This document shows positions 2 through 18,787 of a stretch of DNA of 64,000 nt, piece after piece. The translations under genes and the position numbers were made by a program. This DNA comes from Candidatus Thorarchaeota archaeon. GTDB taxonomy: Archaea; Asgardarchaeota; Thorarchaeia; Thorarchaeales; Thorarchaeaceae. A model generated the notes under the pieces. The model did not search any database. It was not told where the DNA came from and saw only the letters and a list, made by a program, of their open reading frames with translations. The number at the start of each line of letters is the position of its first letter. Position 1 is the first letter of the stretch. Location: assembly GCA_003345545.1 (NCBI GenBank), contig PRDH01000044.1, positions 125,793 through 189,792 on the forward strand, in the 5' to 3' direction.

Positions 2-421
2 AGCAATCCAGAAGACAGAATCACTCTGATTGGAGCCACGAACCTACCGTGGGAGCTGGACTTTGCACTTCGGTCGAGATTTGAGAAGAAAATACATGTT
101 CCACTTCCTGGACGAGAGGCAAGAACAGCAATCTTTGAAACCCATATGGAAGACATCGAGGTTTCTCCGACCATTGACTACGAAGAGATGGCAGATCTGA
201 CCGAAGGGTACAGTGGTCGAGACATAAGCATCGTCTGCCGAGAGGCAGCAATGGAACCAATCCGAGACCTTCAGCGCACTGGAAGAATGGACGATGAGAG
301 AGAAATCTTGGACATCCGGCCCGTTTCAAGGGAAGACTTCTTGAGCGCCATCGAGAACATCAGACCTGCAACTCCCCCAGAGGATGTCAGGAAATACATT
401 GACTGGGCGGAGGGTTCTTAG
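2..421 (+). CDS. vps4: Vps4-like AAA+ ATPase, C-terminal part (truncated by the window edge)
   Basis: The frame is open from base 2 and reads GATNLPWELDFALRSRFEKKIHVPLP ... TEGYSGRDISIVCREAAMEPIR, which are meiotic-clade AAA (Vps4/katanin) SRH and lid motifs. It lies directly upstream of Vps25. Confidence 0.85.
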   Translation, partial: SNPEDRITLIGATNLPWELDFALRSRFEKKIHVPLPGREARTAIFETHMEDIEVSPTIDYEEMADLTEGYSGRDISIVCREAAMEPIRDLQRTGRMDDEREILDIRPVSREDFLSAIENIRPATPPEDVRKYIDWAEGS

Positions 422-424
422 AGG

Positions 425-1162
425 TTGGGCATGAGAGAGAAGCGGAAAGAGAAACGAAGAGAAGAGGCCCAGGAAGAACCAGAAGATACTGAGGTGGTCA
501 GGACAGTTCAGGAGGCAGAGACCTCCCCAGTAATAGAGGAAGACATTCACACACCCGAGGTCATCATTGGGAAGCCCGATGCGACTGAAGTAGTCTCTGA
601 GAATGAAGCTGTCACAGACGAAACCGAAGCAGAGAAACTTCAGAGCGTACCAGTCGTTTCGATGCCCCCTTGGGGTAGCCCCGAGGAGAGCGAATGGATG
701 TACGGTGTTCCTCCAAGAGAAGAGGATAGAATCTTGTGGGCAGAGGAGTGGTCAGATTATCTGCTTCAATGGGCAGAACTCAAACAGATCCATGTACTAT
801 CCCTTGCTGTGTTCATTAGTGAACCTCCTTTCAATGATTTGAGAAACAAGGTCGACTCCTTCAAGATGATTTCCGAGGTCCTCATCGATAAGGAGGTGGC
901 GGAATGGAGTGATAGGCGAAGACGCCAACTCAGAATCTTTTGGAAACCACTTGAGGACTGGGCGGACCTGATATATGAGTGGTCCCTGAGAACAGGAAAG
1001 CTAAGACTAGATGTGAAGTCCATAGTGATACAGGAGTCAAAGGAGAGCTTTGCAAAGCTTCCTGAAAGAGACCTCCATGTTGTTATGGGGTTGATGGTAG
1101 AGAAAGGATTTGCTGAGTGGATTGATAAGAAGAAGGGCGCAGTCCTGGTATCGACTCAGTAG
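425..1162 (+). CDS. vps25: ESCRT-II subunit Vps25/EAP20-like, with an acidic disordered N-terminal extension
   Basis: AEWSDRRRRQLRIFWKPLEDWADLIYEW matches the Vps25 pattern EWLDK..FLIMWRRPEEWGKLIYQW. It starts 4 bp after vps4. Confidence 0.85.
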   Translation: MGMREKRKEKRREEAQEEPEDTEVVRTVQEAETSPVIEEDIHTPEVIIGKPDATEVVSENEAVTDETEAEKLQSVPVVSMPPWGSPEESEWMYGVPPREEDRILWAEEWSDYLLQWAELKQIHVLSLAVFISEPPFNDLRNKVDSFKMISEVLIDKEVAEWSDRRRRQLRIFWKPLEDWADLIYEWSLRTGKLRLDVKSIVIQESKESFAKLPERDLHVVMGLMVEKGFAEWIDKKKGAVLVSTQ

Positions 1163-1914
1163 GCTCCTTGGTTTGAGGTTTCAGGTTTATCTCGTGCTCT
1201 GAGACCCGGAAAATAATACCTCCCGCCTGTTGAGAAACGGATATCTGCAACTGCCATTCCGGTTTCTACGAGGCTCGTGAGCACTTGACGTGCATGATCT
1301 TCGGACCATTTGAGCTGCATCATCACGTCTTCTACTGAAACATGACCTTTCGATGCTGCCAGGTTGACCACATCAGCTTGATCACGGCGGAGTTCGAGCG
1401 GCCTTAGCTCTACGACCTTCACTCCTCCACGAAGAGTCCGAATGCCAGGCAACAGACCGTTCTCTGACACCCGATTGACTGCCTCGATTACATCATTGTA
1501 TGTAACGGATTTCATCTCAGGAAGACGGCGTACGACCTCGACAATGAGCTCCGCAAGCCCCATTAGTCCCTTCGAAGCGTGCTCAGTCGCAACATCAAGT
1601 ATTGCTAAGCCAATATAATCATAGTACTGGTCAGCATTCATTCCCTGATAGGACGTTGCGGAAGCACTCTCGCGGAGCCTGAGAAGGTCAGCAGCATCTG
1701 GAAAGACCTCTGTTATCCGTTCGCCTGCAAAGAAGCCCCCGACATCCAGTCCGCTTCGCTTCAGATTATCAATATGGCTCCGCACCTCCTGAAGGAGTGC
1801 TTGTGATTCTCTCTGGAATGATCCAATATCAACAGCACCCAGGTCATACAGCTTCTTCAGCTGGTCAAGCGTGGCAATGGAGGCATAGAGTTCTGTTTCG
1901 AATCGCTCCTGCAT
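1156..1914 (-). CDS. EAP30/Vps22-Vps36 family ESCRT-II protein with a Vps28-like N-terminal region
   Basis: The C-terminal part (DQYYDYIG..GLMGLAEL..VTYNDVIEAV..PLELRRDQADVVNLAASKGHVSV..LKWSEDHARQVLTSLVETGMA..YYFPGL) is the EAP30 tandem winged helix. The N-terminal part (ELYASIATLDQLKKLYDLGAVD..F) resembles the Vps28 N-terminus. Start placed at MQERF; the ORF extends to 1980. Confidence 0.8.
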   Translation of the reverse strand: MQERFETELYASIATLDQLKKLYDLGAVDIGSFQRESQALLQEVRSHIDNLKRSGLDVGGFFAGERITEVFPDAADLLRLRESASATSYQGMNADQYYDYIGLAILDVATEHASKGLMGLAELIVEVVRRLPEMKSVTYNDVIEAVNRVSENGLLPGIRTLRGGVKVVELRPLELRRDQADVVNLAASKGHVSVEDVMMQLKWSEDHARQVLTSLVETGMAVADIRFSTGGRYYFPGLRARDKPETSNQGAY

Positions 1915-2010
1915 CGGTGATAGTTCCTTCTCTATTCTGAAAGTCCGCACAATGCTGACAAGACTCATTAAATTGCTCATGCTTTAAGTGAGAGTATTAT
2001 CTCGCTACTA

Positions 2011-7745: not shown

Positions 7746-7909
7746 GATTATGATACCTCCATGGAACCTATTGATCCCATTGTCTGTGAATCTAGAACTC
7801 ATTGAGATATTAAAGTGTCCCCTATTCATACGACCTCAGGTAATACATACCATTGTATTGTTCAGAGAGAATGCTCGTATGACAGCAAAATGGTCATCTA
7901 GTGGTGGTC

Positions 7910-8758
7910 ATGACAACGTATCCTACTTACGATGGAAACAAGGTCACTGAGAGACCAGTGAGACTTGACAAGACTGAGGGGAATGTAATCATTGAAGGAA
8001 GGACATATCCAGCAAGAGAACTCATTGAGGCACTTGCTCAGAGCGGCTATGCTGAACTGAGAACTGTTGGTGACTCCATTGTGCTGGGCAACAAGAGAAT
8101 CACGCCCATTTTCAAGTCTCGCCAGGAACGTGCCATGGCGGCTCTGTGTCACAGCAGCCTGGCCTATTGCTGCCCGCTCTCAAAGAGATGCGCTGAGCGA
8201 GATAGAGCCCTCGAGATAATGGGTCTGACACCCAATGAGTACGAAGACCTGAAGAAGAATGAGCATTTCAAATATGTTGAAACAGCAAAAGGAATCGGAG
8301 CCGAAGACCCCCAATGGACAAATCAGGCGCCTAGAGACCGAATTGCCAATCGACCTGCCGTTGATCCCGGATATGGCTCGGAAGACTACAGACGTGATTT
8401 CGAAACTCTAGAGAAAACAATGGTACCGGAAGAAAACCGCTTCGATGGAAGAGACACGACATGGCGAGATTCTCGAGATGATAGAAACACACAGCAATAC
8501 CGGGAGAGAGAGAGCAGGGACATCTATTCAGATCTACAGGGAGCAGTCCCCACAGAAGACGAACGCAGTCGCAGTGTCTGTAGCATAAAGCGAGACGAGT
8601 CTGTCGACGGGATTGGCGCGCTCTTCACTCAGGGCGAACTCAGTCCGTTCCTTGACGACGCTCGAAAGGAGAACCAAGAACAGAAGTTTTGCTTCTCCTG
8701 TGGAAGGAATATCAGAGCTGGTAGCAGAGTGTGCCCATACTGCGGCTCACGTCTATGA
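7910..8758 (+). CDS. Hypothetical protein with a Cys-cluster motif (methanogenesis marker 9-like) and a C-terminal zinc ribbon
   Basis: CHSSLAYCCPLSKRCAERDRAL..MGLT..EY..LKK motif, a charged disordered middle, and CFSCG..CPYCG at the end. Confidence 0.7.
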   Translation: MTTYPTYDGNKVTERPVRLDKTEGNVIIEGRTYPARELIEALAQSGYAELRTVGDSIVLGNKRITPIFKSRQERAMAALCHSSLAYCCPLSKRCAERDRALEIMGLTPNEYEDLKKNEHFKYVETAKGIGAEDPQWTNQAPRDRIANRPAVDPGYGSEDYRRDFETLEKTMVPEENRFDGRDTTWRDSRDDRNTQQYRERESRDIYSDLQGAVPTEDERSRSVCSIKRDESVDGIGALFTQGELSPFLDDARKENQEQKFCFSCGRNIRAGSRVCPYCGSRL

Positions 8759-8770
8759 AGAAACAAATCC

Positions 8771-9829
8771 CTAGAAGTTGCCAATCGCACTCTCTCGTCT
8801 GCGAGAATAGTCAGAGGGGTAGTGGAACGTTGTTACAATTCTATCAATTCCAACATCCTTACCCAATGCCTTGATCTCTTGGAGCTGTTCCAAGGTCGTT
8901 ACGCCCCAACGGAAGAGGGATGCTCTTCCTCCTCTCCTCGTAAACTCATTCACAAAATAGAGTGCCTCTACGAGCTCGCTGTACTCAGAGGTTCCCTTGG
9001 CGGGGATATCCGGAGACCATGGGAAGAGGTTAATCAAGACGTTCTTCGTAATCTCTCCGATCCTAGTGTAATCATAGCCATACTCGTTCTTTGCACCCTC
9101 TGAGAGACCCGTTTCAGGATCAAGGAGTACTTCAACTGAGAGCCTCAGAGGTTTCTCTCTTCCAGTCGCATCATCTGCCTCCACAGCTGCATCCTGCAAG
9201 TAGGTAAGCCCCTGATGCACCTTTTCACTCCGAAACTTGTGCCATTTCTCGTGATATTCCTGATTCTCAGAAATGTACTGGTAGGTGAGCCGACCTGGCT
9301 CTTGATCGACCATGGGTGCGAACTCCTTTCGGCAACGGTCGCAGAAGCAAAACTGATCTCTGATATAACCCCCTCCAAAGAGAAGAATCTCATCGATTGG
9401 ATATGACCCGATTTCCTTCACTATCTCAGCACCGTACTGCCAGAACTCCGGGCGATTGGGGCAGATCTGATGTTCCATCTTTATGCCCCTATCATTCATG
9501 GTCTGGTACTTCGGGTCTCGAGCGAACCATCCATCAGTATACATATCCAGCCCAACAACTGCATTAATGTCCAAAGCGTCCGTAAGGCGCACCCATTCCT
9601 CAAAGAATGGAACATGCTGTTCTCTGACTGGCGCTGTCTTGCTGGGGTATATTGCATATCCATCAGGACCCTTGCCGACTATTCCGACAGCATCCATGTA
9701 AGAAGCATATGTCGAGATGAAGTCCTTTGCTGACATCTCAATGTCTTCGGGTTTGAACATGATGAGCATTTTTTGCATGAAAAACTCGCGGTAATTCACT
9801 TTCATTGTCAAATACCCCGTCGAAAGCAT
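8771..9829 (-). CDS. Glycoside hydrolase-like TIM-barrel protein (GHL10/GH42-related)
   Basis: GYAIYPSK, ICPNRPE and FCFCDRCRKEF..W.KFR motifs. The true start may be at MQKM. Confidence 0.6.
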   Translation of the reverse strand: MLSTGYLTMKVNYREFFMQKMLIMFKPEDIEMSAKDFISTYASYMDAVGIVGKGPDGYAIYPSKTAPVREQHVPFFEEWVRLTDALDINAVVGLDMYTDGWFARDPKYQTMNDRGIKMEHQICPNRPEFWQYGAEIVKEIGSYPIDEILLFGGGYIRDQFCFCDRCRKEFAPMVDQEPGRLTYQYISENQEYHEKWHKFRSEKVHQGLTYLQDAAVEADDATGREKPLRLSVEVLLDPETGLSEGAKNEYGYDYTRIGEITKNVLINLFPWSPDIPAKGTSEYSELVEALYFVNEFTRRGGRASLFRWGVTTLEQLQEIKALGKDVGIDRIVTTFHYPSDYSRRRESAIGNF

Positions 9830-9913
9830 AGTATGTCAGGCTCAAGGTCTCCTTGCGTGTATCACGCTTCGGCTATAAGAATTTCTTATTCAAACCCTCA
9901 TACTGCTATGTCG

Positions 9914-12748
9914 TTAGAAAAACTTGTCTAGGGTGGTGAAACCAAGAAACTCGCTGAAGTCGAGGCCTAGAGAGTCTAGAACTTGATCGAAGACGCCCCT
10001 CAGTATATCAATGTAGACGTCTTTGTCCACCCAGTAGGACGTTTGCTTGGCGAGTTCAACAGGAAGTACACCACCAGGCCCTTTGGTCCGGATGAACTCA
10101 ATGATTGTCCCGGGTAGCACTCGATTGGGGTCTTTCGTTTTCTCGACCAGCATCTTTGCCGCTCTGACGTGTGGCGTATCAGTTGGATACTCAGACAGAC
10201 GCTTCGTTATCTGAATTCGAAAAGCCAGCTCCTCAGGAGAGTAGCCTTCAGTCTTCCCCTCAAGCCTATCGATGACATGATTCACAATCTGACGTATTCC
10301 AGCTTTTGCTGTTTCGAATCCCTCTGCGTCATCAACTCGACTCAGTACCTCAAGCATCTCTCTAAATGCCTGTTGGGCATAGTCCGGTGTGTTCCGCTTC
10401 TTCCCGCTTAATCCTTTGACTTCCACCTTCCCATCCGGATAGACACCAATGTAGTTCTTCTTTCTGTCTGAGAGCGCTACATACTTGTAGGTCTTATCAA
10501 CTTCAAGATCAATACCAAGAGCTTTTCGCGACCATTGAACTAATTCCTTCTGCTGCTCCTTTGATGGATTGTCCAGGAAGACCGAGTCTGTATCACCATA
10601 GAGCACCCTGATTCCCATATCCTCTGCCTTCGCCTTGGCCCGCTGAATAGCATCACGCCCGAAGGCAGTGATACTCTCTGCAGCTGGCATGCAAAAGAGC
10701 TCGAAATGTCTGGCTCCTGTGACACCGTAGGATGCATTGACGAACACCTTCAATGCTTTCTCCACGACCGAGTACCAGTTCCTAGTACGTTCATCCACTG
10801 TTTTGTCCTTGCTCTTGGGTTTGAACCACTTCACACGGGTGTCCCGGAAGAAGCCTATCGTCTGACTGATCATCCCTCGTCGTTTCTTACAGACCCAGTG
10901 GTCGGTCTCCGGAACTCGATTATCATCCGCATTCTTACATTCCTCATGCGGGCAGTCAATCGTTTCGTAGCTGATATTGTGTGTTTTCATGATTGTTGGG
11001 TATAGACTGGCGAAGTCTAACACTGTCGCCTTGAAGTGCACGCCAGCCACAGGCTCAATCACAATGGCTCCCTTGAACGCTTTCCCGCCAATCAATGCTT
11101 CAGTCTGTGCGTCAGATTGCTTGACTGTATCAATATCGACACGTCGCGGAATAAGCTGGCTATGGGCTCTGTGTTCCTGCCTGAACAGTGATTGAATCCA
11201 AGAGGAGATGTAGAATCGAGTGACCTCACCCATTGACATCCTAGAGACACGCATGAGAAGGACGATGAGTCTGAGCAACAGGTTGTTCTCATACATTGTG
11301 AATCTGAGAACGAGATTCGAATCGAGCCAGCAGTAGTGAGCAAGTTCATGGTAGGATAATGCAGAGATGTTATCGCTCAGCTGGAGTTTTCGCTCACCGA
11401 GAATACCCTCTGCGATGGTGTCCAGATTCTCACGTTGATATGCACCTGAGAGTGCATAGATCTTTATTGAGGGATTGGTGAAGAACTTGTACATGTCAAC
11501 ATGTATTCCACGTTTCAGGTCAGCCTGCTCTCGTCGCGGGTCCTGATTGCCGCGAATCACGATTGGACAGTACTTGTCCATGTCCATATGCAGACTCTTC
11601 GCACGGTTGTAGAGGTATTTGAGGTCGAAAGTGTCCCCAACGAAGGTCAGTACAATTGGATACTTATCAATGATTTTGAAAGCCTCGACCAACATCTCAG
11701 TTTCGTCATCAAAGTATACTAATTCAAGCTCTTTGGGGAATTTCTTGCCCTTCTTTCCTTCGGATATTCCGGCTCGACGAAGCACAAGACACTGATTGAG
11801 CCCATCGCTATCGGACAGACCTATGGCTGTGACAGGATATTGGGACACCCGAGCATCAGGAACCCTATTGACGATGGGGGTATAGACCTCGATATCAACC
11901 GCGATTCTCCTGATGTCCGGAACTTCAGTGAAAAACATAGGGGAGTATGTAGATATGATAGACTCGAGACCCTCTTCATCAGCGATTGTCTTCTTGAACT
12001 CATTGAGGATCTTTGTGTCTACATCAGGCTGGCAGGCAATTAGCTTCCCCTTCTCTATCTTGTACATGAGGCCGGGTACGAAACCCCTATCATACGTATA
12101 ACACAGATGATAGCGTATGGTGGCTTCCCATGCATGGCTCACATTGTTATCATCAATGAGCTTCTCCCTCATCGATGCAGCACCACCACCAATGCTGAGC
12201 GGATTATCACCGATGAGTTTTGTCATCGTCACATGCTTATCATGCAGGAGATCATGAAGCTTAATAGTTTCGGTTCTCACAAACCCAGGATTGCCGCGTA
12301 CCTTTGACTCAACGACCTGTGGCGGCCAGTCAGTATAGAGGAATGGTTTATGCCCTGTATTATCAATCCAGAAGCAGACCCTCTTTGATTTTGGTTCATA
12401 GAGCCGAGCAACTGCCTTGTTTAGTGGGCCGGAGTAGTCAATAGACAAGAGAAAGGAGGGGGACAACTCCTTTGGTTTGTCCATTTCTCCGATATTGAAG
12501 TGAATTGATGGTTCTTCGACATCTTCCTCGGCTATTTCATCCTCCTCATCGTTTGTCGACTGAGTTTCTGGAAAGGGAGTTGAAGTAGGTGATTCCAGAG
12601 GGGCGCCTCGCCTAGATGCGGCTGCTTTCTTCTCCCGAGAGCCTTTTGCAGAAGGCACAGGAGGAGCCTCGGTTTCTTCTGCTCCGAGGAAGTCCTCTAA
12701 TGAAGACTGATTAACATCTGTCGGTTTCTCATCCTTCATTAAGGTCAT
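9914..12748 (-). CDS. polB: Family B DNA polymerase (PolB1-type)
   Basis: Exonuclease DIEV and FDLKYL; polymerase DFASLYP, KVFVNASYG, YGDTDS and KKNY; PIP-like QSSLEDFL and TTLDKFF. Confidence 0.96.
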   Translation of the reverse strand: MTLMKDEKPTDVNQSSLEDFLGAEETEAPPVPSAKGSREKKAAASRRGAPLESPTSTPFPETQSTNDEEDEIAEEDVEEPSIHFNIGEMDKPKELSPSFLLSIDYSGPLNKAVARLYEPKSKRVCFWIDNTGHKPFLYTDWPPQVVESKVRGNPGFVRTETIKLHDLLHDKHVTMTKLIGDNPLSIGGGAASMREKLIDDNNVSHAWEATIRYHLCYTYDRGFVPGLMYKIEKGKLIACQPDVDTKILNEFKKTIADEEGLESIISTYSPMFFTEVPDIRRIAVDIEVYTPIVNRVPDARVSQYPVTAIGLSDSDGLNQCLVLRRAGISEGKKGKKFPKELELVYFDDETEMLVEAFKIIDKYPIVLTFVGDTFDLKYLYNRAKSLHMDMDKYCPIVIRGNQDPRREQADLKRGIHVDMYKFFTNPSIKIYALSGAYQRENLDTIAEGILGERKLQLSDNISALSYHELAHYCWLDSNLVLRFTMYENNLLLRLIVLLMRVSRMSMGEVTRFYISSWIQSLFRQEHRAHSQLIPRRVDIDTVKQSDAQTEALIGGKAFKGAIVIEPVAGVHFKATVLDFASLYPTIMKTHNISYETIDCPHEECKNADDNRVPETDHWVCKKRRGMISQTIGFFRDTRVKWFKPKSKDKTVDERTRNWYSVVEKALKVFVNASYGVTGARHFELFCMPAAESITAFGRDAIQRAKAKAEDMGIRVLYGDTDSVFLDNPSKEQQKELVQWSRKALGIDLEVDKTYKYVALSDRKKNYIGVYPDGKVEVKGLSGKKRNTPDYAQQAFREMLEVLSRVDDAEGFETAKAGIRQIVNHVIDRLEGKTEGYSPEELAFRIQITKRLSEYPTDTPHVRAAKMLVEKTKDPNRVLPGTIIEFIRTKGPGGVLPVELAKQTSYWVDKDVYIDILRGVFDQVLDSLGLDFSEFLGFTTLDKFF

Positions 12749-12844
12749 CCACAGAATTAGTGGAATGATGTTGACTGATAAGCACTTCCCATCGGCGCGG
12801 CGTCCTCCGTGACCTTCATTAGTGGAGCATGTCTAGCAGCACCC

Positions 12845-13276
12845 ATGGTTCGCGTACACACTACGAAAGCGACGGGAAGAGTACTGGTCGCTCGACTCTT
12901 GCCTGGCGAGGATATTCTCAGCTCAATCGAGAAGATTGCAGATGAAAACAAGATTCAGTCAGCGCATTTCAGCATGATTGGTGCGGTTTCAAGAGTCCAT
13001 TTGGGTTACTTTGACAGAGAGCTGAATAGCTACAAGGATTTCACTGTAGAAGAAGACCTTGAGGTTGTTTCGGGCATTGGCAATGTCTCAAGGCATGATG
13101 GGAAGTACGTAGTGCATGCACATATCGTCGTAGCAGACGAAATCGGCAGGTGCTATGGCGGTCATCTTCTGGGAGGATGTGAGGTTTCGGTCACCATCGA
13201 GCTCGTTATCACTGAGATTCCTGAGATGACGAGAACTCGTGATGAGAAGTCAGGACTCAACCTGCTCAACATCTAG
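12845..13276 (+). CDS. PPC/DUF296 domain protein
   Basis: RLLPGEDI, IGAV, LEVVSGIGNVS, HAHIVV and GGHL. Confidence 0.9.
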   Translation: MVRVHTTKATGRVLVARLLPGEDILSSIEKIADENKIQSAHFSMIGAVSRVHLGYFDRELNSYKDFTVEEDLEVVSGIGNVSRHDGKYVVHAHIVVADEIGRCYGGHLLGGCEVSVTIELVITEIPEMTRTRDEKSGLNLLNI

Positions 13277-13701
13277 AATGACTTTCTGATTCGTTTTGAC
13301 ATCCGATCCAACTCGTCTCGCGGAGCCATTGAGTCGTGATACCCTGGTGGAAACTTGAAACCAAATGGGTCGGCATTGTTTCTGGGAATCACGTGAAAAT
13401 GCAGGTGTGGCACGTCTTGCCCAGCACCCTCACCATTTGCTATGACATTGATTACACCGTCTGCTCCCGTCGCTTTCGATACTGCCTTTGTCAGCTCTGA
13501 CAGTTTCACAGACATATGAGAAAGAACATCATGGTCAACATCCATCATGTTGACAAAGTGCCTTTTCGGTATGAGTAGACAGTGTCCGGTTGTTATTGGA
13601 AAGACATCCATGAAGGCCATACAGATGTCATCCTGATATATCACGGAGGATGGCACATCACCTTGAACAATCTTGCAGAAGATACAATCCTTTGAACTCA
13701 T
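13273..13701 (-). CDS. hit: HIT family nucleotide hydrolase
   Basis: CIFCKIV, GHCLLIPKRH and GQDVPHLHFHVIPR. Confidence 0.93.
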   Translation of the reverse strand: MSSKDCIFCKIVQGDVPSSVIYQDDICMAFMDVFPITTGHCLLIPKRHFVNMMDVDHDVLSHMSVKLSELTKAVSKATGADGVINVIANGEGAGQDVPHLHFHVIPRNNADPFGFKFPPGYHDSMAPRDELDRMSKRIRKSF

Positions 13702-13820
13702 GTCTCGGTACTTTGAATAAGTGCGAAATAAAGAATTCGAAGTGCTTGAGTGACGTGCGCACAAGTCTAATTAGCGTGATTGACCCGAATGAGAATAACA
13801 GGTTACTTGGGTGCATCCTC

Positions 13821-15011
13821 TTGAGCGGAAGAAGGCCAAAGGTTTACTTCGACCAGACACAAAATGAGCGCGGAAAGCTGGACAGTACATACTCTGAACT
13901 GGGTCAAATCCTGAGGGATAACGACTTTGACGTAGAACCCTATACAGAATTCATGCTTCTTGCCAAGAATCTGAGAGAAGCGGATGTCCTGGTATTCGGA
14001 TGTCCTAATAGCTCCAAAGTACGACCTCCTGAGATAGATGTTTTGCAGAAGTACGTCAAGAATGGGGGCGGTCTGATGTTACTATCGCTCTCAGGTGGCG
14101 ATAGAGGCCTCATGAATAATATGTCACAGATATCACAGGAGTTTGGAATCTCTTTCGACAATACAGCAGTCAAGGATGACAGGAACAACGCGGGGATTCC
14201 CACCATGCCAGTCATCAGCGACATTGTCGCTCATCCGACGACCGAGAACGTGGGAGAACTTCTCATCCCTTCTGCCTGCAGCCTTCATGTCAGTGGCAAG
14301 GCAGTCGCTCTGGCCCGGACATCACAGGTGGCAGAACCAAGTAGGGCGCCCATTGTTGCAGCCGCAGAGGTTGGAAAAGGCCGTATAATGTGCATTGGGA
14401 GCTATGAGATCTTCAGAAAGGGCGGGGGTCTGAAGCACGAAGGGAATACGACATTTGCAATTAATGCATTCAAGTGGTTGAGTAGAGAACTGCAGGCAAC
14501 AAAGCCCAGCACTGCTGCCACGGAGCAAACAAAGACAGAGAGTGCCAAGGCAAGAGGGGAGCTAAGAGAGGCTGATACTGTGCCTACAGCGGAGATCGAA
14601 AAGACACTTAGAAGGCTGGTCAATGCTGTGGTTGACCTTCAGAAAGACATCTCCAAGATGAATGAACAGGTCGGGAATGTTGAATCCCATATTGAGCTTC
14701 TTAGAAGTCAGTTCCAAGAGTTTGCAGAGAAGACACAACAACAACTGGGTGTCATGATGCCAGCAAAGCAGTTCAAGACTCCCGAGGAGAATAGGGCTGC
14801 AGATATTGAGGCAGACATCAGATCCCTACTAAAAGAGACAGAATCAATTCAGCAGCTCTGCGAACATATCGAACAGAGGTATGCATCTGGAGCCATGGCA
14901 AAAGAAACCTATACCGAACAGATGGAGAGTCTAAACGCCAGAATCGTTAGTATAGGGAAGAAGATTGAGAAGAAAGAGAAGGAGCTTGAACAATTCAAGA
15001 CGGAGGGCTAA
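13821..15011 (+). CDS. GIFT/IFT52-GldG-like domain protein with a C-terminal coiled coil
   Basis: VYFDQTQNE, DVLVFGCP, EIDVLQKYVKNGGGLMLLSLSGG..NN..ISQEFGISFDNTAV, GKGRIMCIGS and N..FAINAFKWL, followed by heptad repeats. Start placed at TTG 13821. Confidence 0.75.
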   Translation: MSGRRPKVYFDQTQNERGKLDSTYSELGQILRDNDFDVEPYTEFMLLAKNLREADVLVFGCPNSSKVRPPEIDVLQKYVKNGGGLMLLSLSGGDRGLMNNMSQISQEFGISFDNTAVKDDRNNAGIPTMPVISDIVAHPTTENVGELLIPSACSLHVSGKAVALARTSQVAEPSRAPIVAAAEVGKGRIMCIGSYEIFRKGGGLKHEGNTTFAINAFKWLSRELQATKPSTAATEQTKTESAKARGELREADTVPTAEIEKTLRRLVNAVVDLQKDISKMNEQVGNVESHIELLRSQFQEFAEKTQQQLGVMMPAKQFKTPEENRAADIEADIRSLLKETESIQQLCEHIEQRYASGAMAKETYTEQMESLNARIVSIGKKIEKKEKELEQFKTEG

Positions 15012-16508
15012 ATTCATCCTCTTGCACAGCAGTGACGGTGCATTCTCTGCTTCTTGATATCGACTGCCTGAGAGAAACGAGGCGGCATCGTAGCCATCAC
15101 TCGCGACCTCCAGCACGACAGAGAACTGCCTATGACAGATGTATCCCAGAAGCATAAGGATTATGAATGCAATGTATACATAGCGATTGGGTGTCAGAAT
15201 CAAAAGTCCAAACAGTATTGGATTCAATAACATGAATATCGATGGTTTCACTGTCTGCTTCTTCACTGAGATCATGCTTGACACAGACTGTATGGAGAAG
15301 AATGGGATAAGTGCGACACAGTAGTACTTGTACATTCCACGTGGTGAGAAGATGTGCACACATAGTATGAGAAGCAGTGAAAGGAAGAACATGCGGCGCC
15401 AGTATGCGGGAAGATTGTTGTCATCCTTGACCTGAAGCAACATCAATACTAGAAGCGTGAGTATAGAAATCGCCAAGAAGATGTTGTAGTATGTCGCCTT
15501 GTTCACAATGTCGACTAGCCAAGTTGGTGCGTCTAAGAAAATCAAAAGAACAGCCGGTGATATCGGCTGGGACACATCGGGAAGATTGGTGAGGTCCTCC
15601 AGTAGAAAGCCTCCTGGTCGCTGAAAGATGTAGTAGAGATAGTTCTGCAAGTCAAAGAGATATGGCAGAGACACTACTGCGATATATACCAGAACAGCCA
15701 GAGCTATCTTAGCAAATCCTCTCAAGTCAAGTTCGTCGCCGGGAGGTCTCTTGCCACCGACGACTTCAGGCTGTTTCGTCGGAGCCCTCTTCAGAATGTA
15801 GGCGATAAGTGGAAGGGCGAGAAAGAAGGCGGTCTGCTTGAAGAGTGCGGCTGTTACCATCGCCAGAGTTCCTGAAAGCCGTCTACCCTTCATCAATAGA
15901 TAGAATGACAACATCACAAAGAACACGAAGGGTGCTGGATTGAGCCATTTGAATGTGGTGTAAAAGAGCACGAGTGGATTGAATAGATACGTGATGACGG
16001 ATATTTCTCCGACCCTTCTGTTCTGTGCCAGATAGGCACTGATACCATAGATTGGAAATGCAGTCAGATATCCGAAGAGACTGATCATGAATCCAATTCC
16101 GAAGGGATCGATGGGCAAGACCAGACCGAATGCACACATGTAGACATAGAGCGGTGGATAGAAGTATGGTGTGTTCCACGAGGTTCCATCTACAAAGGTC
16201 TTGTCGAATGTGTCCGTGTAGGGAGCTATGCCGCTAAGAAATTGCTCACCCCAGGAGTAGTAGTAATAGTCATAGTCCACATAGCCCTCAAAGTCGTAAT
16301 AGACGGTATATCCGAATAGGTCGAACTGACCCACGCCGCCCCAAGTCCCCCTGAATGGTCGGCTTCCATCTGCGATAAAATCGGAGGCGGCCCATGTAAA
16401 GATCAAGATCCATACGATAGCAGCCACCACAAGGATGAGTATCAGGACTATGTTCGTGCGTGCAAGTGCTCCGAGTCGAGCGATGCGGGATTCGTTCTCA
16501 GTGGACAT
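14931..16508 (-). CDS. GT-C superfamily integral membrane glycosyltransferase (GT87/PIG-M-like)
   Basis: Lumenal loop EGYVDYDYYY..WG..PY, YPPL, NPLV, FKQTA and about 10 or more TM segments. Confidence 0.7.
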   Translation of the reverse strand: MSTENESRIARLGALARTNIVLILILVVAAIVWILIFTWAASDFIADGSRPFRGTWGGVGQFDLFGYTVYYDFEGYVDYDYYYYSWGEQFLSGIAPYTDTFDKTFVDGTSWNTPYFYPPLYVYMCAFGLVLPIDPFGIGFMISLFGYLTAFPIYGISAYLAQNRRVGEISVITYLFNPLVLFYTTFKWLNPAPFVFFVMLSFYLLMKGRRLSGTLAMVTAALFKQTAFFLALPLIAYILKRAPTKQPEVVGGKRPPGDELDLRGFAKIALAVLVYIAVVSLPYLFDLQNYLYYIFQRPGGFLLEDLTNLPDVSQPISPAVLLIFLDAPTWLVDIVNKATYYNIFLAISILTLLVLMLLQVKDDNNLPAYWRRMFFLSLLLILCVHIFSPRGMYKYYCVALIPFFSIQSVSSMISVKKQTVKPSIFMLLNPILFGLLILTPNRYVYIAFIILMLLGYICHRQFSVVLEVASDGYDAASFLSGSRYQEAENAPSLLCKRMNLALRLELFKLLLFLLNLLPYTNDSGV

Positions 16509-16519
16509 GAACGCACCTC

Positions 16520-18787
16520 CTAGATTGGCATTGATTCAGTCGCTTTCGGGAGCACAGAGACTCCTGAAGATTCCACAGAAGCACTTTGAACAAAAACAGT
16601 GCCAATGGTCAGCAGGAGATGAATTACTAGTCCTGCGATACAGGTCCATCCGAGAAGCATGAGCAGGACATCGCCAAGCGAAGACCAGACCCACGCCCCG
16701 ACTGCACACCCCAAGATGAGAAAGATGTCAGCTAATAGCCTGGATATGTTCGCAACACGTATCACAAGTCCCAAAGTCCACATAACTAGCAGCATACTAG
16801 AGACAACCATGAGCTGGCTTTCGAGAAGACCACCAACAGTCCAGCTGAGAACGTAAGTATCGATTCCAAAGATAATGAGAAGAGCTGCCAATGTGAATGA
16901 CAGTGTCCTGACGACATAATCGAGATCACTCTGTCGGGCCTGTTCTGATAGAAGCCCGTTGCTTGCTATTGAGAGAATCTGCATACCCGCGAAGACCATC
17001 GCTCCCATCAGCAGCATGGACTGTATGATGACTGCAAGGGATGCAGTCAATCGGTCGAAACACACGGACATGCCCAGTACAAGAAGCGCAGAGCCACACA
17101 CCATAGACACGACAATCGTGATCATCCGCAACACCTTGAATGATAGGGATTGAGTCTGCCCATGAAGCTGGACAGTGCCGAAACGTAGGCGGAGATGGCC
17201 TGCAAGGTGAGTCTTCAGGTACGAGAAGGGACGTTTGATGAGACCATAGAGTCGATCAAACAGGGGCGAGAGGCAGTAAGAAATGAAGATCAGAAGGACA
17301 TATCCTAGGTAGTAGTTGCGGTCGGGAAGCAGAATCATGAGTGAGAATAGGATTGGCATCCATATCATCGAAGCCGAGAACGGCACATGTTCTCCTTTTC
17401 CACGAATCATCTGAGCCGACGAGAGAATCGCAAAGAAGGGACCGAACATCGCGAAGTAGTACTTGAAGACCCCTCGAGGACCGGCCAAATCGGTCCACAG
17501 CATGAGAAGCATTGTGAGGAAGAGTATTCGACGCAGATACACATGTTCTTCGCCCTTGTACTTGTCAAGGAGGACCATCAGCCCTGCGAATACGACGATT
17601 CCAAAGAAGAGTGGACCCTGTGTAGTGAGAGCAATATCAAGGAGCTCTGCAAACTGAGGCATGTCATACATTATAGGAAGCATAGGCAATCGCACAGGAT
17701 TGCCATAGGGCACTGGTTCCACGTAATTAGCCAGGGGAAAATGACCTAGTGCCAATGACCAGAAATTGAGGAAGTCTGGTTGGGCTAGAATGAAGGGCAG
17801 CATGATTGCTCCTGCGTAGGAGAGTGCCACAATGATACTCATTCCGAAGCCTCGAAAATCAAAGTACTCGAACAAGAAGTCGAAACTTTTGGCCTGCGGC
17901 TTCATCTCCCCATCATCGCCGAGCACACCATTGTCATAGTTGTTCAGAACAGGTTCCTCTGTGACCTTTGTCTTCCTGTCGCGAGCTCGCACGAGTAGAT
18001 AGATGACAAGGGGAATTCCAAGAAACCACGCAGTCTGCTTGAAGAGCGCAGCAGTCACTATCAGTATCGTTGCAGTATGCCGCCGTTTCTTCAAGAGAGC
18101 ATAGAAGCCTGCAAAGAAGAAGAAGTAGAAGGGCGCAGGATTGAGCCAGATATAGTCAATATGATAGAGTACTAGGGGATTGATCGCGTACATTAGAGCT
18201 GCAATCTCCCCTACTCGCGGATTCTTCGATAGCTCTTTTGCAATTCCGTACACTGGAAGAATGGTGGCATAGCCAAATACTGCAAAGAGGAGTCCAATTC
18301 CCCAGTTTCCCGGCCCGATTATTCCTTCCAGAGCAATGCCAAGAGCATAGAGATAGGCTGTAAGAGGCGGGAACATGTAGGCGCCATTCTGGTTGACTAT
18401 CCCATCCATGTCTAGATAGCCAAAGTCCCCTGAGTATGGCATGACTCCATTGAGCATGTTGTATCCCCAGTGGACATAGTAGTAGGAATAATCGCTGTAG
18501 CCCTCGAACTGGTACTCTATGATATAGCCGTAGAAGTTGAACTCACCAGGATCGGGGAGCGGACCTAGCCATGCAGACCGTCCACTCCAGAAACGAGTGT
18601 TAAGATAGTCAACTAGTGCAATATTGAAGACAACCGACCAGACCACGAAGCCGATTAATAGCACTGCGATGAGATAGCGATACTCACTGAGGAATCGCGA
18701 CAGACGACGTCCACCCTGAAGAAGCGTGTGATCAATCCGGTGAACCGACCCTGTAATCCGAAACCTACTCGCAATCTCAGTGCCCAT
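16520..18787 (-). CDS. GT-C glycosyltransferase paralog with extra C-terminal TM helices
   Basis: Shares EGYSDYSYYY..WG, FPPL, NPRVGEI, WLNPAPF, AALFKQTA and PRG..KYY with the neighbouring gene. Confidence 0.7.
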   Translation of the reverse strand: MGTEIASRFRITGSVHRIDHTLLQGGRRLSRFLSEYRYLIAVLLIGFVVWSVVFNIALVDYLNTRFWSGRSAWLGPLPDPGEFNFYGYIIEYQFEGYSDYSYYYVHWGYNMLNGVMPYSGDFGYLDMDGIVNQNGAYMFPPLTAYLYALGIALEGIIGPGNWGIGLLFAVFGYATILPVYGIAKELSKNPRVGEIAALMYAINPLVLYHIDYIWLNPAPFYFFFFAGFYALLKKRRHTATILIVTAALFKQTAWFLGIPLVIYLLVRARDRKTKVTEEPVLNNYDNGVLGDDGEMKPQAKSFDFLFEYFDFRGFGMSIIVALSYAGAIMLPFILAQPDFLNFWSLALGHFPLANYVEPVPYGNPVRLPMLPIMYDMPQFAELLDIALTTQGPLFFGIVVFAGLMVLLDKYKGEEHVYLRRILFLTMLLMLWTDLAGPRGVFKYYFAMFGPFFAILSSAQMIRGKGEHVPFSASMIWMPILFSLMILLPDRNYYLGYVLLIFISYCLSPLFDRLYGLIKRPFSYLKTHLAGHLRLRFGTVQLHGQTQSLSFKVLRMITIVVSMVCGSALLVLGMSVCFDRLTASLAVIIQSMLLMGAMVFAGMQILSIASNGLLSEQARQSDLDYVVRTLSFTLAALLIIFGIDTYVLSWTVGGLLESQLMVVSSMLLVMWTLGLVIRVANISRLLADIFLILGCAVGAWVWSSLGDVLLMLLGWTCIAGLVIHLLLTIGTVFVQSASVESSGVSVLPKATESMPI

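Follow-up and report, generated by a model that had tools for sequence, protein, structure and literature searches.

A gene at positions 13821 to 15011 of the window, the 64,000-nucleotide (nt) stretch of Candidatus Thorarchaeota contig PRDH01000044.1 analysed here, encodes a soluble protein of 396 amino acids (aa), P0001, in which an N-terminal GIFT domain is joined by a linker and a long stalk helix to a C-terminal helical hairpin. The head is probably non-catalytic and is homologous to the N-domain of the intraflagellar transport (IFT) protein IFT52, as well as to many prokaryotic GIFT domains. The hairpin, as judged from profile comparisons, is a module of the steadiness box (SB) family. 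The steadiness box is the module that holds together the headpiece of ESCRT-I, of the endosomal sorting complexes required for transport (ESCRT). The anatomy of head, linker with stalk, and hairpin is well supported. For the function of the protein a tentative reading is favoured, given somewhat less than an even chance, in which P0001 would serve as an accessory, SB-bearing and ubiquitin-independent adaptor attached to the SB network of the archaeal ESCRT-I/II set, the docking step being the part that we infer.

GIFT domains, steadiness boxes and a class of Asgard proteins joining an SB to other domains are already known. What appears to be new is a GIFT head placed on a Vps23-like stalk and SB, though GIFT matches occur in most of the sampled Asgard genomes. 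No published description of this family was found in the literature on IFT52 or IFT in Asgard archaea or on archaeal GIFT domains. In the main text and the searched supplements of Makarova et al. 2024 mBio (PMC10936438), GIFT, IFT52, DUF4350 and GldG are not mentioned, and the same holds for amidotransferase and ThuA in the main text.

Gene and domain architecture

The gene and the parts of its product, all on the + strand, are as follows.

13821..15011, +: gene of the GIFT/coiled coil/SB-hairpin protein (P0001, 396 aa, soluble), TTG start, stop at 15009-15011; from the open reading frame, its translation and the orthologue alignment
13809..13813, +: GGGTG, a possible ribosome-binding site inferred from reading the sequence, 8-12 nt upstream of the TTG
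13821..14486, +: GIFT domain, aa 1-222, class-I glutamine-amidotransferase-like alpha/beta fold; from Pfam PF23355, IFT52 in the PDB, AlphaFold2 and Foldseek
14487..14582, +: T/E/A-rich linker, aa 223-254, predicted to be disordered; from composition, a predicted local distance difference test score (pLDDT) below 50 at aa 226-255 and poor conservation in the alignment
14583..14747, +: helix of about 55 residues, aa 255-309, which may be the stalk or a coiled coil; from the AlphaFold2 helices
14748..14780, +: short conserved break, aa 310-320, GVMMPAKQFKT; from alignments A1 and A4, non-helical in both models
14781..15005, +: C-terminal helical hairpin of steadiness-box type, aa 321-395; from a pLDDT of ~95, hhalign to Asgard SBs and a genome-wide search with an SB hidden Markov model (HMM)

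The open frame that contains the gene runs from 13650 to 15011, and the TTG at 13821 is the counterpart of the MSGRR at which the orthologues begin; a longer, ATG-initiated frame would run into the divergent HIT gene. Most of the listed Thorarchaeota orthologues share 65-76 % identity with P0001. Neither a hydrophobic segment nor a transmembrane segment or signal peptide was found in the protein, in which the Kyte-Doolittle 19-residue mean peaks at 1.38. Given the lack of a signal peptide or transmembrane segment, the GIFT domain is predicted to be cytosolic, unlike those of GldG and OST48.

The identity of the head was assessed by profile, sequence and structure searches. Pfam PF23355 (IFT52_GIFT) matched the whole protein with 57.6 bits and aa 1-228 with 60.2 bits, at a cut-off of 27.2. 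The scores for DUF4350, ThuA and ABC_transp_aux (the GldG family PF09822; 24.8-27.1 bits, cut-off 34.7) were all under the respective Pfam cut-offs, and OST48_N gave no Pfam match. When P0001 was searched against the PDB with phmmer, only IFT52 chains were significant (Chlamydomonas 2.2e-14, mouse 1.6e-6). In the AlphaFold2 model, built from 22 orthologues, the head is an alpha/beta domain, for which Foldseek ranked the IFT52 N-domain (IFT52N) first (5fmr_A, E 7.1e-15; TM-score by target 0.75-0.83, with 0.79-0.83 for 5fms), followed by OST48/Wbp1 chains (E 1.9e-9) and GATase1-like proteins. The position of the nucleophile in this amidotransferase-like fold, judged by topology only, corresponds to the loop after strand 4, which reads L-S-G-G-D and holds no Cys. 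IFT52N itself is not an enzyme and binds no sugars; it provides a platform for the tetratricopeptide repeats of IFT88 and the IFT57/38 coiled coil (PMC4818760, PMC9753473).

For the stalk helix, Pfam and NCBIfam returned coiled-coil noise only. It ends at the conserved break, in which G310, P314, Q317, F318 and T320 are invariant across Thorarchaeota. The two helices of the hairpin span aa 321-355 and 361-395, with the turn at S356-G357 and with S342 and G357 conserved. An AlphaFold2 model of the tail alone (aa 254-396) reached a mean pLDDT of 83.6, with ~95 in the hairpin. Among the 25 Asgard-wide tails of alignment A3, one Gly is invariant and the motif L..F.EKKY.SGKI....Y.KQ.KKL is shared. 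A two-copy complex prediction for aa 254-396, made with alignment A4, scored 0.03, which speaks neither for nor against self-association.

The preliminary description of this DNA had proposed a protein without signal peptide, with an IFT52-like GIFT motif at the N-terminus, and with the order GIFT domain, linker, coiled coil and SB-like hairpin. The hydropathy maximum agrees with the first point; the segment quoted for the second aligns with IFT52 residues 54-124; and Pfam, the PDB searches and the AlphaFold2 models confirm the proposed anatomy in every detail. The string IEQRYASGAMAKETYTEQMESLNARI, which was quoted there as well, spans the turn of the C-terminal hairpin.

Steadiness-box character of the C-terminal hairpin

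In Asgard archaea, Vps22 has been described as fused to an SB, and Znr_PH_CC_SB as a likely ESCRT-I component (PMC10936438). The SB is reported to resemble the CdvA hairpin, and SB-containing multidomain Asgard proteins are predicted to dock on ESCRT-I (Makarova et al., PMC10936438). A reference alignment, A5, was made of the C-terminal Znr_PH_CC_SB hairpins from 20 genomes of 13 families. It matched the yeast Vps23 SB at 1.4e-7 and that of TSG101 at 7.7e-4, and 12 of its 20 members matched Pfam Vps23_core; these Asgard hairpins are genuine steadiness boxes.

Profile-profile comparison by hhalign of the GIFT-protein tails (A3) with A5 gave a probability of 96.2 % and an E-value of 2.7e-9 over 64 columns spanning both helices. 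Similarly, Thorarchaeota tails alone reached 92-94 % against the Asgard SBs, and 94.2 % (E 1.2e-7) against SBs from lineages other than Thorarchaeota. The controls remained at 2-7 % for reversed alignments and 5-6 % for the stalk helix. Moreover, when an HMM made solely from non-Thorarchaeota SBs was run over all six-frame open reading frames of the genome, the tail of P0001 was the top match (E 3e-6), followed at E 0.024 by the divergent SB of the Thorarchaeota's own Znr_PH_CC_SB protein, and no other coiled-coil protein fell below E 0.1. The C-terminal hairpin of P0001 is thus a module of steadiness-box type.

In the PDB the tail profile had no significant match, and no ESCRT-I chain was among the best 60 of 194 matches at E<=10. 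VIA-align returned tied generic hairpins at Z ~10-11 (CdvA, CHMP4B/Snf7, prefoldin, SMC and seryl-tRNA synthetase), which are not diagnostic; the CdvA filament, with Z 10.9 and a root-mean-square deviation of 0.9 A over 72 residues, was tied with many generic helical hairpins in the same way. When the 25 family tails were scanned singly at E<=1, GvpG was matched by 12, SHOCT by eight (best 4.1e-5), the CdvA hairpin weakly by seven and Vps23_core by none; the tail of P0001 itself matched neither SHOCT nor CdvA at E<=1. SHOCT was matched by three of the 20 genuine SBs in A5 as well, and the six short-tailed members of A3, SHOCT-like by eye, reached 89 % against A5 in hhalign. Taken together, the SHOCT matches in both sets and the similarity of the SHOCT-like tails to A5 suggest that SB and SHOCT-like hairpins overlap.

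From the Pfam and PDB HMMER results and the non-significant Foldseek matches, the tail had also been considered to be merely SHOCT-like or a plain coiled coil; this assignment was given up in view of the hhalign comparisons and the search of the genome with the SB HMM. As a separate observation, PDB entry 8whn_A, which holds the cytoplasmic part of Prometheoarchaeum OST1/ribophorin I, was weakly matched by both profiles, with E 0.053 for the GIFT-protein tails and E 0.097 for the SBs, and was a fold match to the tail (Z 10.6); an SB/SHOCT-like hairpin may therefore be present in this cytoplasmic domain.

Relationship to IFT52, genomic setting and competing explanations

A profile search of 1.84 billion representatives retrieved 1479 relatives. 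Some 70 of these had E < 1e-30; nearly all are soluble proteins that begin, or nearly begin, with the GIFT domain and have a helical tail, and every named one is from Asgard (Thor-, Hel-, Jord-, Frey-, Loki-, Ran- and Promethearchaeota). The remoter relatives are membrane-anchored or very large surface proteins, whose named clusters include Bathyarchaeota and Thermoprotei, and the PF23355 cut-off is also passed by membrane-anchored proteins among them, two in clusters named after these lineages. A membrane-anchored GIFT protein, P0196, scored 80 bits on PF23355, above the score of the Thorarchaeota protein, and its GIFT domain gave E-values of 2.9e-15 with Chlamydomonas IFT52 (CrIFT52) and 2.8e-14 with mouse IFT52, compared to 2.2e-14 and 1.6e-6 for P0001. 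The source of P0196 is probably Archaeoglobi/Halobacteriota-like, that is euryarchaeal; the locus search with P0196 mainly matched its DUF2341 part, hence the naming of the lineage is indirect. On its contig (ENA ERZ23498365), likewise probably euryarchaeal, a Tubulin_2-family gene and the gene of a CARDB surface protein lie upstream of P0196, which among the membrane-anchored GIFT proteins sampled is the one nearest to IFT52. A FastTree tree of 125 GIFT domains, which included no eukaryotic IFT52 (none being among the 150 representatives listed), groups the soluble Asgard proteins in one clade and leaves P0196 outside it.

The look-alikes of P0001 in the ESM Atlas comprised bacterial and Thermoplasmatota clusters carrying PF23355, with IFT52 clusters among the nearest shapes. 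The eukaryotic IFT52 clusters there carry both IFT52_central (PF23352) and Itf52_C (PF21178), neither of which gave a Pfam match at E<=0.1 in full-length P0001. At the IFT-B2-binding patch, the HMMER alignment places CrIFT52 R204, a residue needed for IFT-B2 binding (PMC4818760), opposite Ala176, and K130 in an unaligned stretch. The resemblance of P0001 to IFT52 is real yet generic to prokaryotic GIFT domains. The idea that the protein is a prokaryotic IFT52 relative, put forward in the preliminary description, holds as regards GIFT homology, but a special kinship finds no support, since P0196 and other prokaryotic GIFT domains are equally close.

The partners on which the stalk and hairpin might dock would be other SB-bearing ESCRT-I/II proteins of the same archaeon, the candidates being Znr_PH_CC_SB and the form of Vps22 with an N-terminal SB. 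By docking, P0001 would link its GIFT head, together with anything bound to it, to an ESCRT assembly and would act in the manner of Vps23 or Vps37, without dependence on ubiquitin. The ESCRT locus of the window (2-1980), about 12 kb from the P0001 gene, holds three genes.

2-421: 3' end of vps4, before Vps25; AAA_lid_3 and Vps4_C
425..1162, +: Vps25 (ESCRT-II); Pfam ESCRT-II, 2.3e-13
1156..1914, -: Vps22/EAP30 protein with N-terminal hairpin; Pfam EAP30, 1.4e-13, fitting the published Asgard Vps22-SB form (PMC10936438)

The frame of the Vps22 gene extends over 1156-1980 on the - strand, and a start at 1914 is likelier than one at 1980 because the orthologues are ~252 aa long. Its first 90 aa have VPS28 as their sole Pfam match, a weak one (E 0.16), and this N-terminal hairpin reached only 20-45 % against the genuine SBs in hhalign. 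The gene of the Znr_PH_CC_SB protein (P0479, 536 aa; G000:C44:122598-124205, L090:4799-6409) lies upstream of these ESCRT genes, about 3.2 kb before the start of the window and 15.4 kb upstream of the P0001 gene. P0479 has no Pfam match at E<=0.1, and its C-terminal SB, of Thorarchaeota type (LLRDGRLVTEDFIRRYKDL), is so divergent that its E-value of 0.024 with the HMM described above is poorer than that of the GIFT-protein tail. Two small proteins with CdvA/SB-like hairpins, encoded elsewhere in this genome, may also belong to this SB network. In the first (G000:C6:15031-15588, L173; PCI 3.6e-6, CdvA 3.4e-4) the hairpin is N-terminal and precedes a PCI domain; in the second (G000:C19:60964-61551, L171) it is at the C-terminus.

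The GIFT family was matched in 331 of 400 Asgard genomes, and orthologues of Znr_PH_CC_SB P0479 at E <= 1e-8 in 293 of the 400. Only families possessing Znr_PH_CC_SB showed SB-type tails (7/15 of these, compared to 0/3 of the families without it, in a small sample of related genomes that are not independent), and GIFT proteins lacking an SB occur in families both with and without it. The phyletic coupling of the GIFT gene with ESCRT is ambiguous.

The genes that adjoin the P0001 gene in the window are listed below.

9914-12748, -: family-B DNA polymerase (PolB), named from its orthologue in locus L005 (942 aa, DNA_pol_B and exo1)
12809-13276, +: PCC-domain protein; Pfam
13273-13764, -: HIT hydrolase; Pfam
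14931..16508, -: polytopic membrane protein of 525 aa, convergent, its 3' end overlapping the P0001 gene by 81 nt; from the list of open reading frames
16520-18787, -: paralogous polytopic membrane protein of 755 aa, in tandem with the preceding one

The upstream order PolB-PCC-HIT is common to other Thorarchaeota; Freyrarchaeia have it without HIT, and Jordarchaeia without PCC or HIT. The two tandem membrane proteins (14931-18787) matched no Pfam family even at E<=1, and the pair is kept in the Thorarchaeota loci but absent from those of Jordarchaeia and Freyrarchaeia. Further downstream, Rad50, Mre11 and HerA are encoded in Thorarchaeota and a sister order. As regards ESCRT and ubiquitin genes, Vps25 and Vps22 lie 12-19 kb from the GIFT gene in Thorarchaeota, VPS28 and a UEV gene 4-6 kb from it in Jordarchaeia, and the genes for ubiquitin, E2 and E1 about 5 kb from it in Freyrarchaeum.

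Other conserved surroundings were observed as well. A block of a zinc-ribbon protein (+), a ~340-aa protein (-) and PolB (-) precedes the GIFT gene in Thorarchaeota and Jordarchaeia (window 7901-12748; L008:2302-6657; L005:2127-6962), the two small proteins of this block being without family assignment. An ARPC4-like gene (Arp2/3 subunit 4) lies directly downstream, in convergent orientation, in Jordarchaeia (L008:8228-8824) and Freyrarchaeum (L143:8381-8956), and is absent from this place in Thorarchaeota. In three Loki-type contigs (L004:6764-10452, L142:3448-6081, L144:5749-9250), a GMPPB/eIF2B-like NTP-transferase gene is found directly upstream and co-directed; in two of the three, a second, short gene encoding GIFT only (228-230 aa) follows.

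In favour of docking on ESCRT are the order of parts, which is that of Vps23 and Vps37, the presence of ESCRT or ubiquitin genes within 5-19 kb in three classes, and the restriction of SB-type tails to families with Znr_PH_CC_SB. Several results weigh against it. On the side of the hairpin, neither Vps23_core nor Mod_r gave a direct Pfam/HMMER match with the tail of P0001, and VPS28 matched it with 14.7-14.9 bits (E 0.024-0.026), under the cut-off of 24.5. Foldseek returned no significant match for the tail, with ESCRT-I hairpins appearing only amid generic helical hairpins at E 0.5-0.9, and the eight SHOCT-matching tails point to a generic hairpin found well outside ESCRT. With respect to the two candidate partners, hhalign detected no similarity between the tail and the divergent hairpin of the Thorarchaeota's own Znr_PH_CC_SB, and the tail profile likewise did not resemble that of the Vps22 N-terminal hairpin (1156-1914), which the preliminary description had proposed as the pairing partner, though binding needs no similarity. 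On the side of the genomes, the GIFT gene never lies within an ESCRT operon, its constant adjoining genes being PolB, PCC, HIT, ARPC4-like or NTP-transferase. In closed genomes the distance to ESCRT genes ranges from 55 kb (G301 and G304) through about 355 kb (G015 and G016) to 2.3 Mb (G138); in G117, Vps28 is 98 kb and Vps25 469 kb away. Furthermore, one family that possesses ESCRT-II lacks the GIFT gene (0/22 genomes at E 1e-10, 0/5 at 1e-3), and the best orthologues in 11 of 18 sampled families carry another coiled-coil tail and no SB, which suggests that the conserved core function of the GIFT family does not need the SB.

The 'ESCRT-I-like chassis' of the preliminary description thus stands as far as the homology of its parts is concerned (hairpin to SB 96 %, E 2.7e-9), but gene order and phyletic pattern do not bind the gene closely to ESCRT. 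A tail that was only a SHOCT had been named there as an outcome that would speak against the proposal; the result is divided, as eight of 25 tails match SHOCT and yet the tails match genuine SBs.

A self-assembling scaffold independent of ESCRT is nearly as likely as the adaptor. In such a scaffold, the stalk and the SB/SHOCT-type hairpin would self-associate into a dimer or higher oligomer and multiple GIFT heads would bind an unrelated partner, which by gene position could belong to DNA replication and repair (PolB, Rad50-Mre11-HerA) or, in Lokiarchaeia, to nucleotide-sugar metabolism. The retention of the PolB-PCC-(HIT)-GIFT order in three Asgard classes, the downstream Rad50, Mre11 and HerA genes in Thorarchaeota and the sister order, and the NTP_transferase adjoining the GIFT gene in the three Loki-type contigs are consistent with this, as are the SHOCT matches and the GIFT and coiled-coil core that is retained where the SB tail is missing. 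However, the adjoining genes are mainly divergent or convergent rather than co-transcribed, and the hairpin matches genuine SBs specifically and over its full length, which is more than a generic motif would give; moreover, a GIFT domain is not known from any replication or glycan protein. Another explanation involves the two polytopic membrane proteins downstream: together with these, P0001 could form part of a membrane complex for transport or glycosylation, as an accessory subunit in the manner of GldG or OST48. GIFT domains do occur in GldG and OST48/Wbp1, the latter following IFT52 among the Foldseek matches, two large membrane proteins are encoded convergently with an overlap at the 3' end of the P0001 gene, and one Helarchaeota relative carries the NCBI label 'Gldg family protein'. 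Nevertheless, this is the least probable of the explanations and highly improbable in itself: P0001 has no signal peptide or transmembrane segment, ABC_transp_aux stays below its cut-off and OST48_N is unmatched, no ABC transporter gene is adjacent, and the membrane-protein genes are convergent, without Pfam family and absent from the Jordarchaeia and Freyrarchaeia loci.

A further explanation turns on the head, the Asgard family of cytosolic GIFT/coiled-coil proteins being a specific sister or forerunner of IFT52 and hence a new eukaryotic signature protein. P0001 and IFT52 are both cytosolic and have the same succession of GIFT head, linker and helical assembly domain at the C-terminus, the GIFT core of P0001 aligns with CrIFT52 across a conserved stretch of 72 residues with IFT52 as the best PDB match, IFT52 clusters are among the nearest Atlas shapes, and the family is as widespread in Asgard as noted above. 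We nonetheless consider such descent unlikely. The probably euryarchaeal P0196, outside the Asgard cytosolic clade, outscores P0001 on both CrIFT52 and mouse IFT52, PF23355 is also present in membrane-anchored archaeal proteins and in Thermoplasmatota and bacterial Atlas proteins, and P0001 shows neither a signal of IFT52_central and Itf52_C nor a counterpart of R204, which stands opposite Ala176. A combined reading, in which the Asgard GIFT/stalk/SB protein would be a working ESCRT-I subunit in the Vps37-like position apparently missing from Asgard genomes, its GIFT head bringing in cargo, and in which the same family would be ancestral to IFT52, is less probable still. If both parts were true, one archaeal protein would link the origins of ESCRT- and IFT-based trafficking.

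Should the SB of P0001 dock on archaeal ESCRT-I/II, as in the adaptor reading, the protein would be a ubiquitin-independent adaptor. It would reveal what a cytosolic GIFT domain brings in as its partner and would thereby place the fold of eukaryotic IFT52 in a functional setting. If there is no docking, the result still delimits how far SB/SHOCT-type hairpins reach beyond ESCRT.

Comparison with known systems

The closest counterpart of the tail is Znr_PH_CC_SB (asCOG cog.011556; PMC10936438). In both proteins a coiled coil is followed by a C-terminal SB hairpin, with 96 % in hhalign, both are specific to Asgard, and both fit the published idea that multidomain proteins with an SB dock on ESCRT-I. 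They differ in the head, which consists of zinc ribbons and PH/GLUE in Znr_PH_CC_SB and of GIFT in P0001, and in that the P0001 gene lies outside the ESCRT operon. With Vps23/TSG101 and Vps37, P0001 shares the order of parts, namely an N-terminal recognition domain, a flexible linker, a stalk helix and an SB hairpin, and the hairpins have the turn motif G-x-(I/L/M)-x4-(Y/F) in common. Unlike Vps23/TSG101, however, P0001 has no UEV domain, and its link to Vps23_core runs solely through the Asgard SB profile. SHOCT (PF09851) and the CdvA hairpin (PF18822) are likewise short C-terminal modules of helix, Gly turn and helix. The similarity of the P0001-type hairpin to SBs extends over 64 columns and includes the first helix with its conserved Ser; the SHOCT motif is shorter than this match.

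As regards the head, IFT52 (OSM-6/BLD1, of the IFT-B1 core; 5FMR, 5FMS and 8BD7) shares with P0001 the GIFT domain, a cytosolic location and the succession of head, linker and helical tail. IFT52 alone has IFT52_central, which binds IFT88/IFT70, Itf52_C, which binds IFT46, and R204, whereas P0001 is without these. Finally, GldG (PF09822), DUF4350 and OST48-Wbp1 have the GIFT/GATase1-like fold in common with P0001, but these proteins are extracytoplasmic and membrane-anchored, in contrast to P0001, which is soluble and encoded away from any ABC-transporter or OST neighbours.

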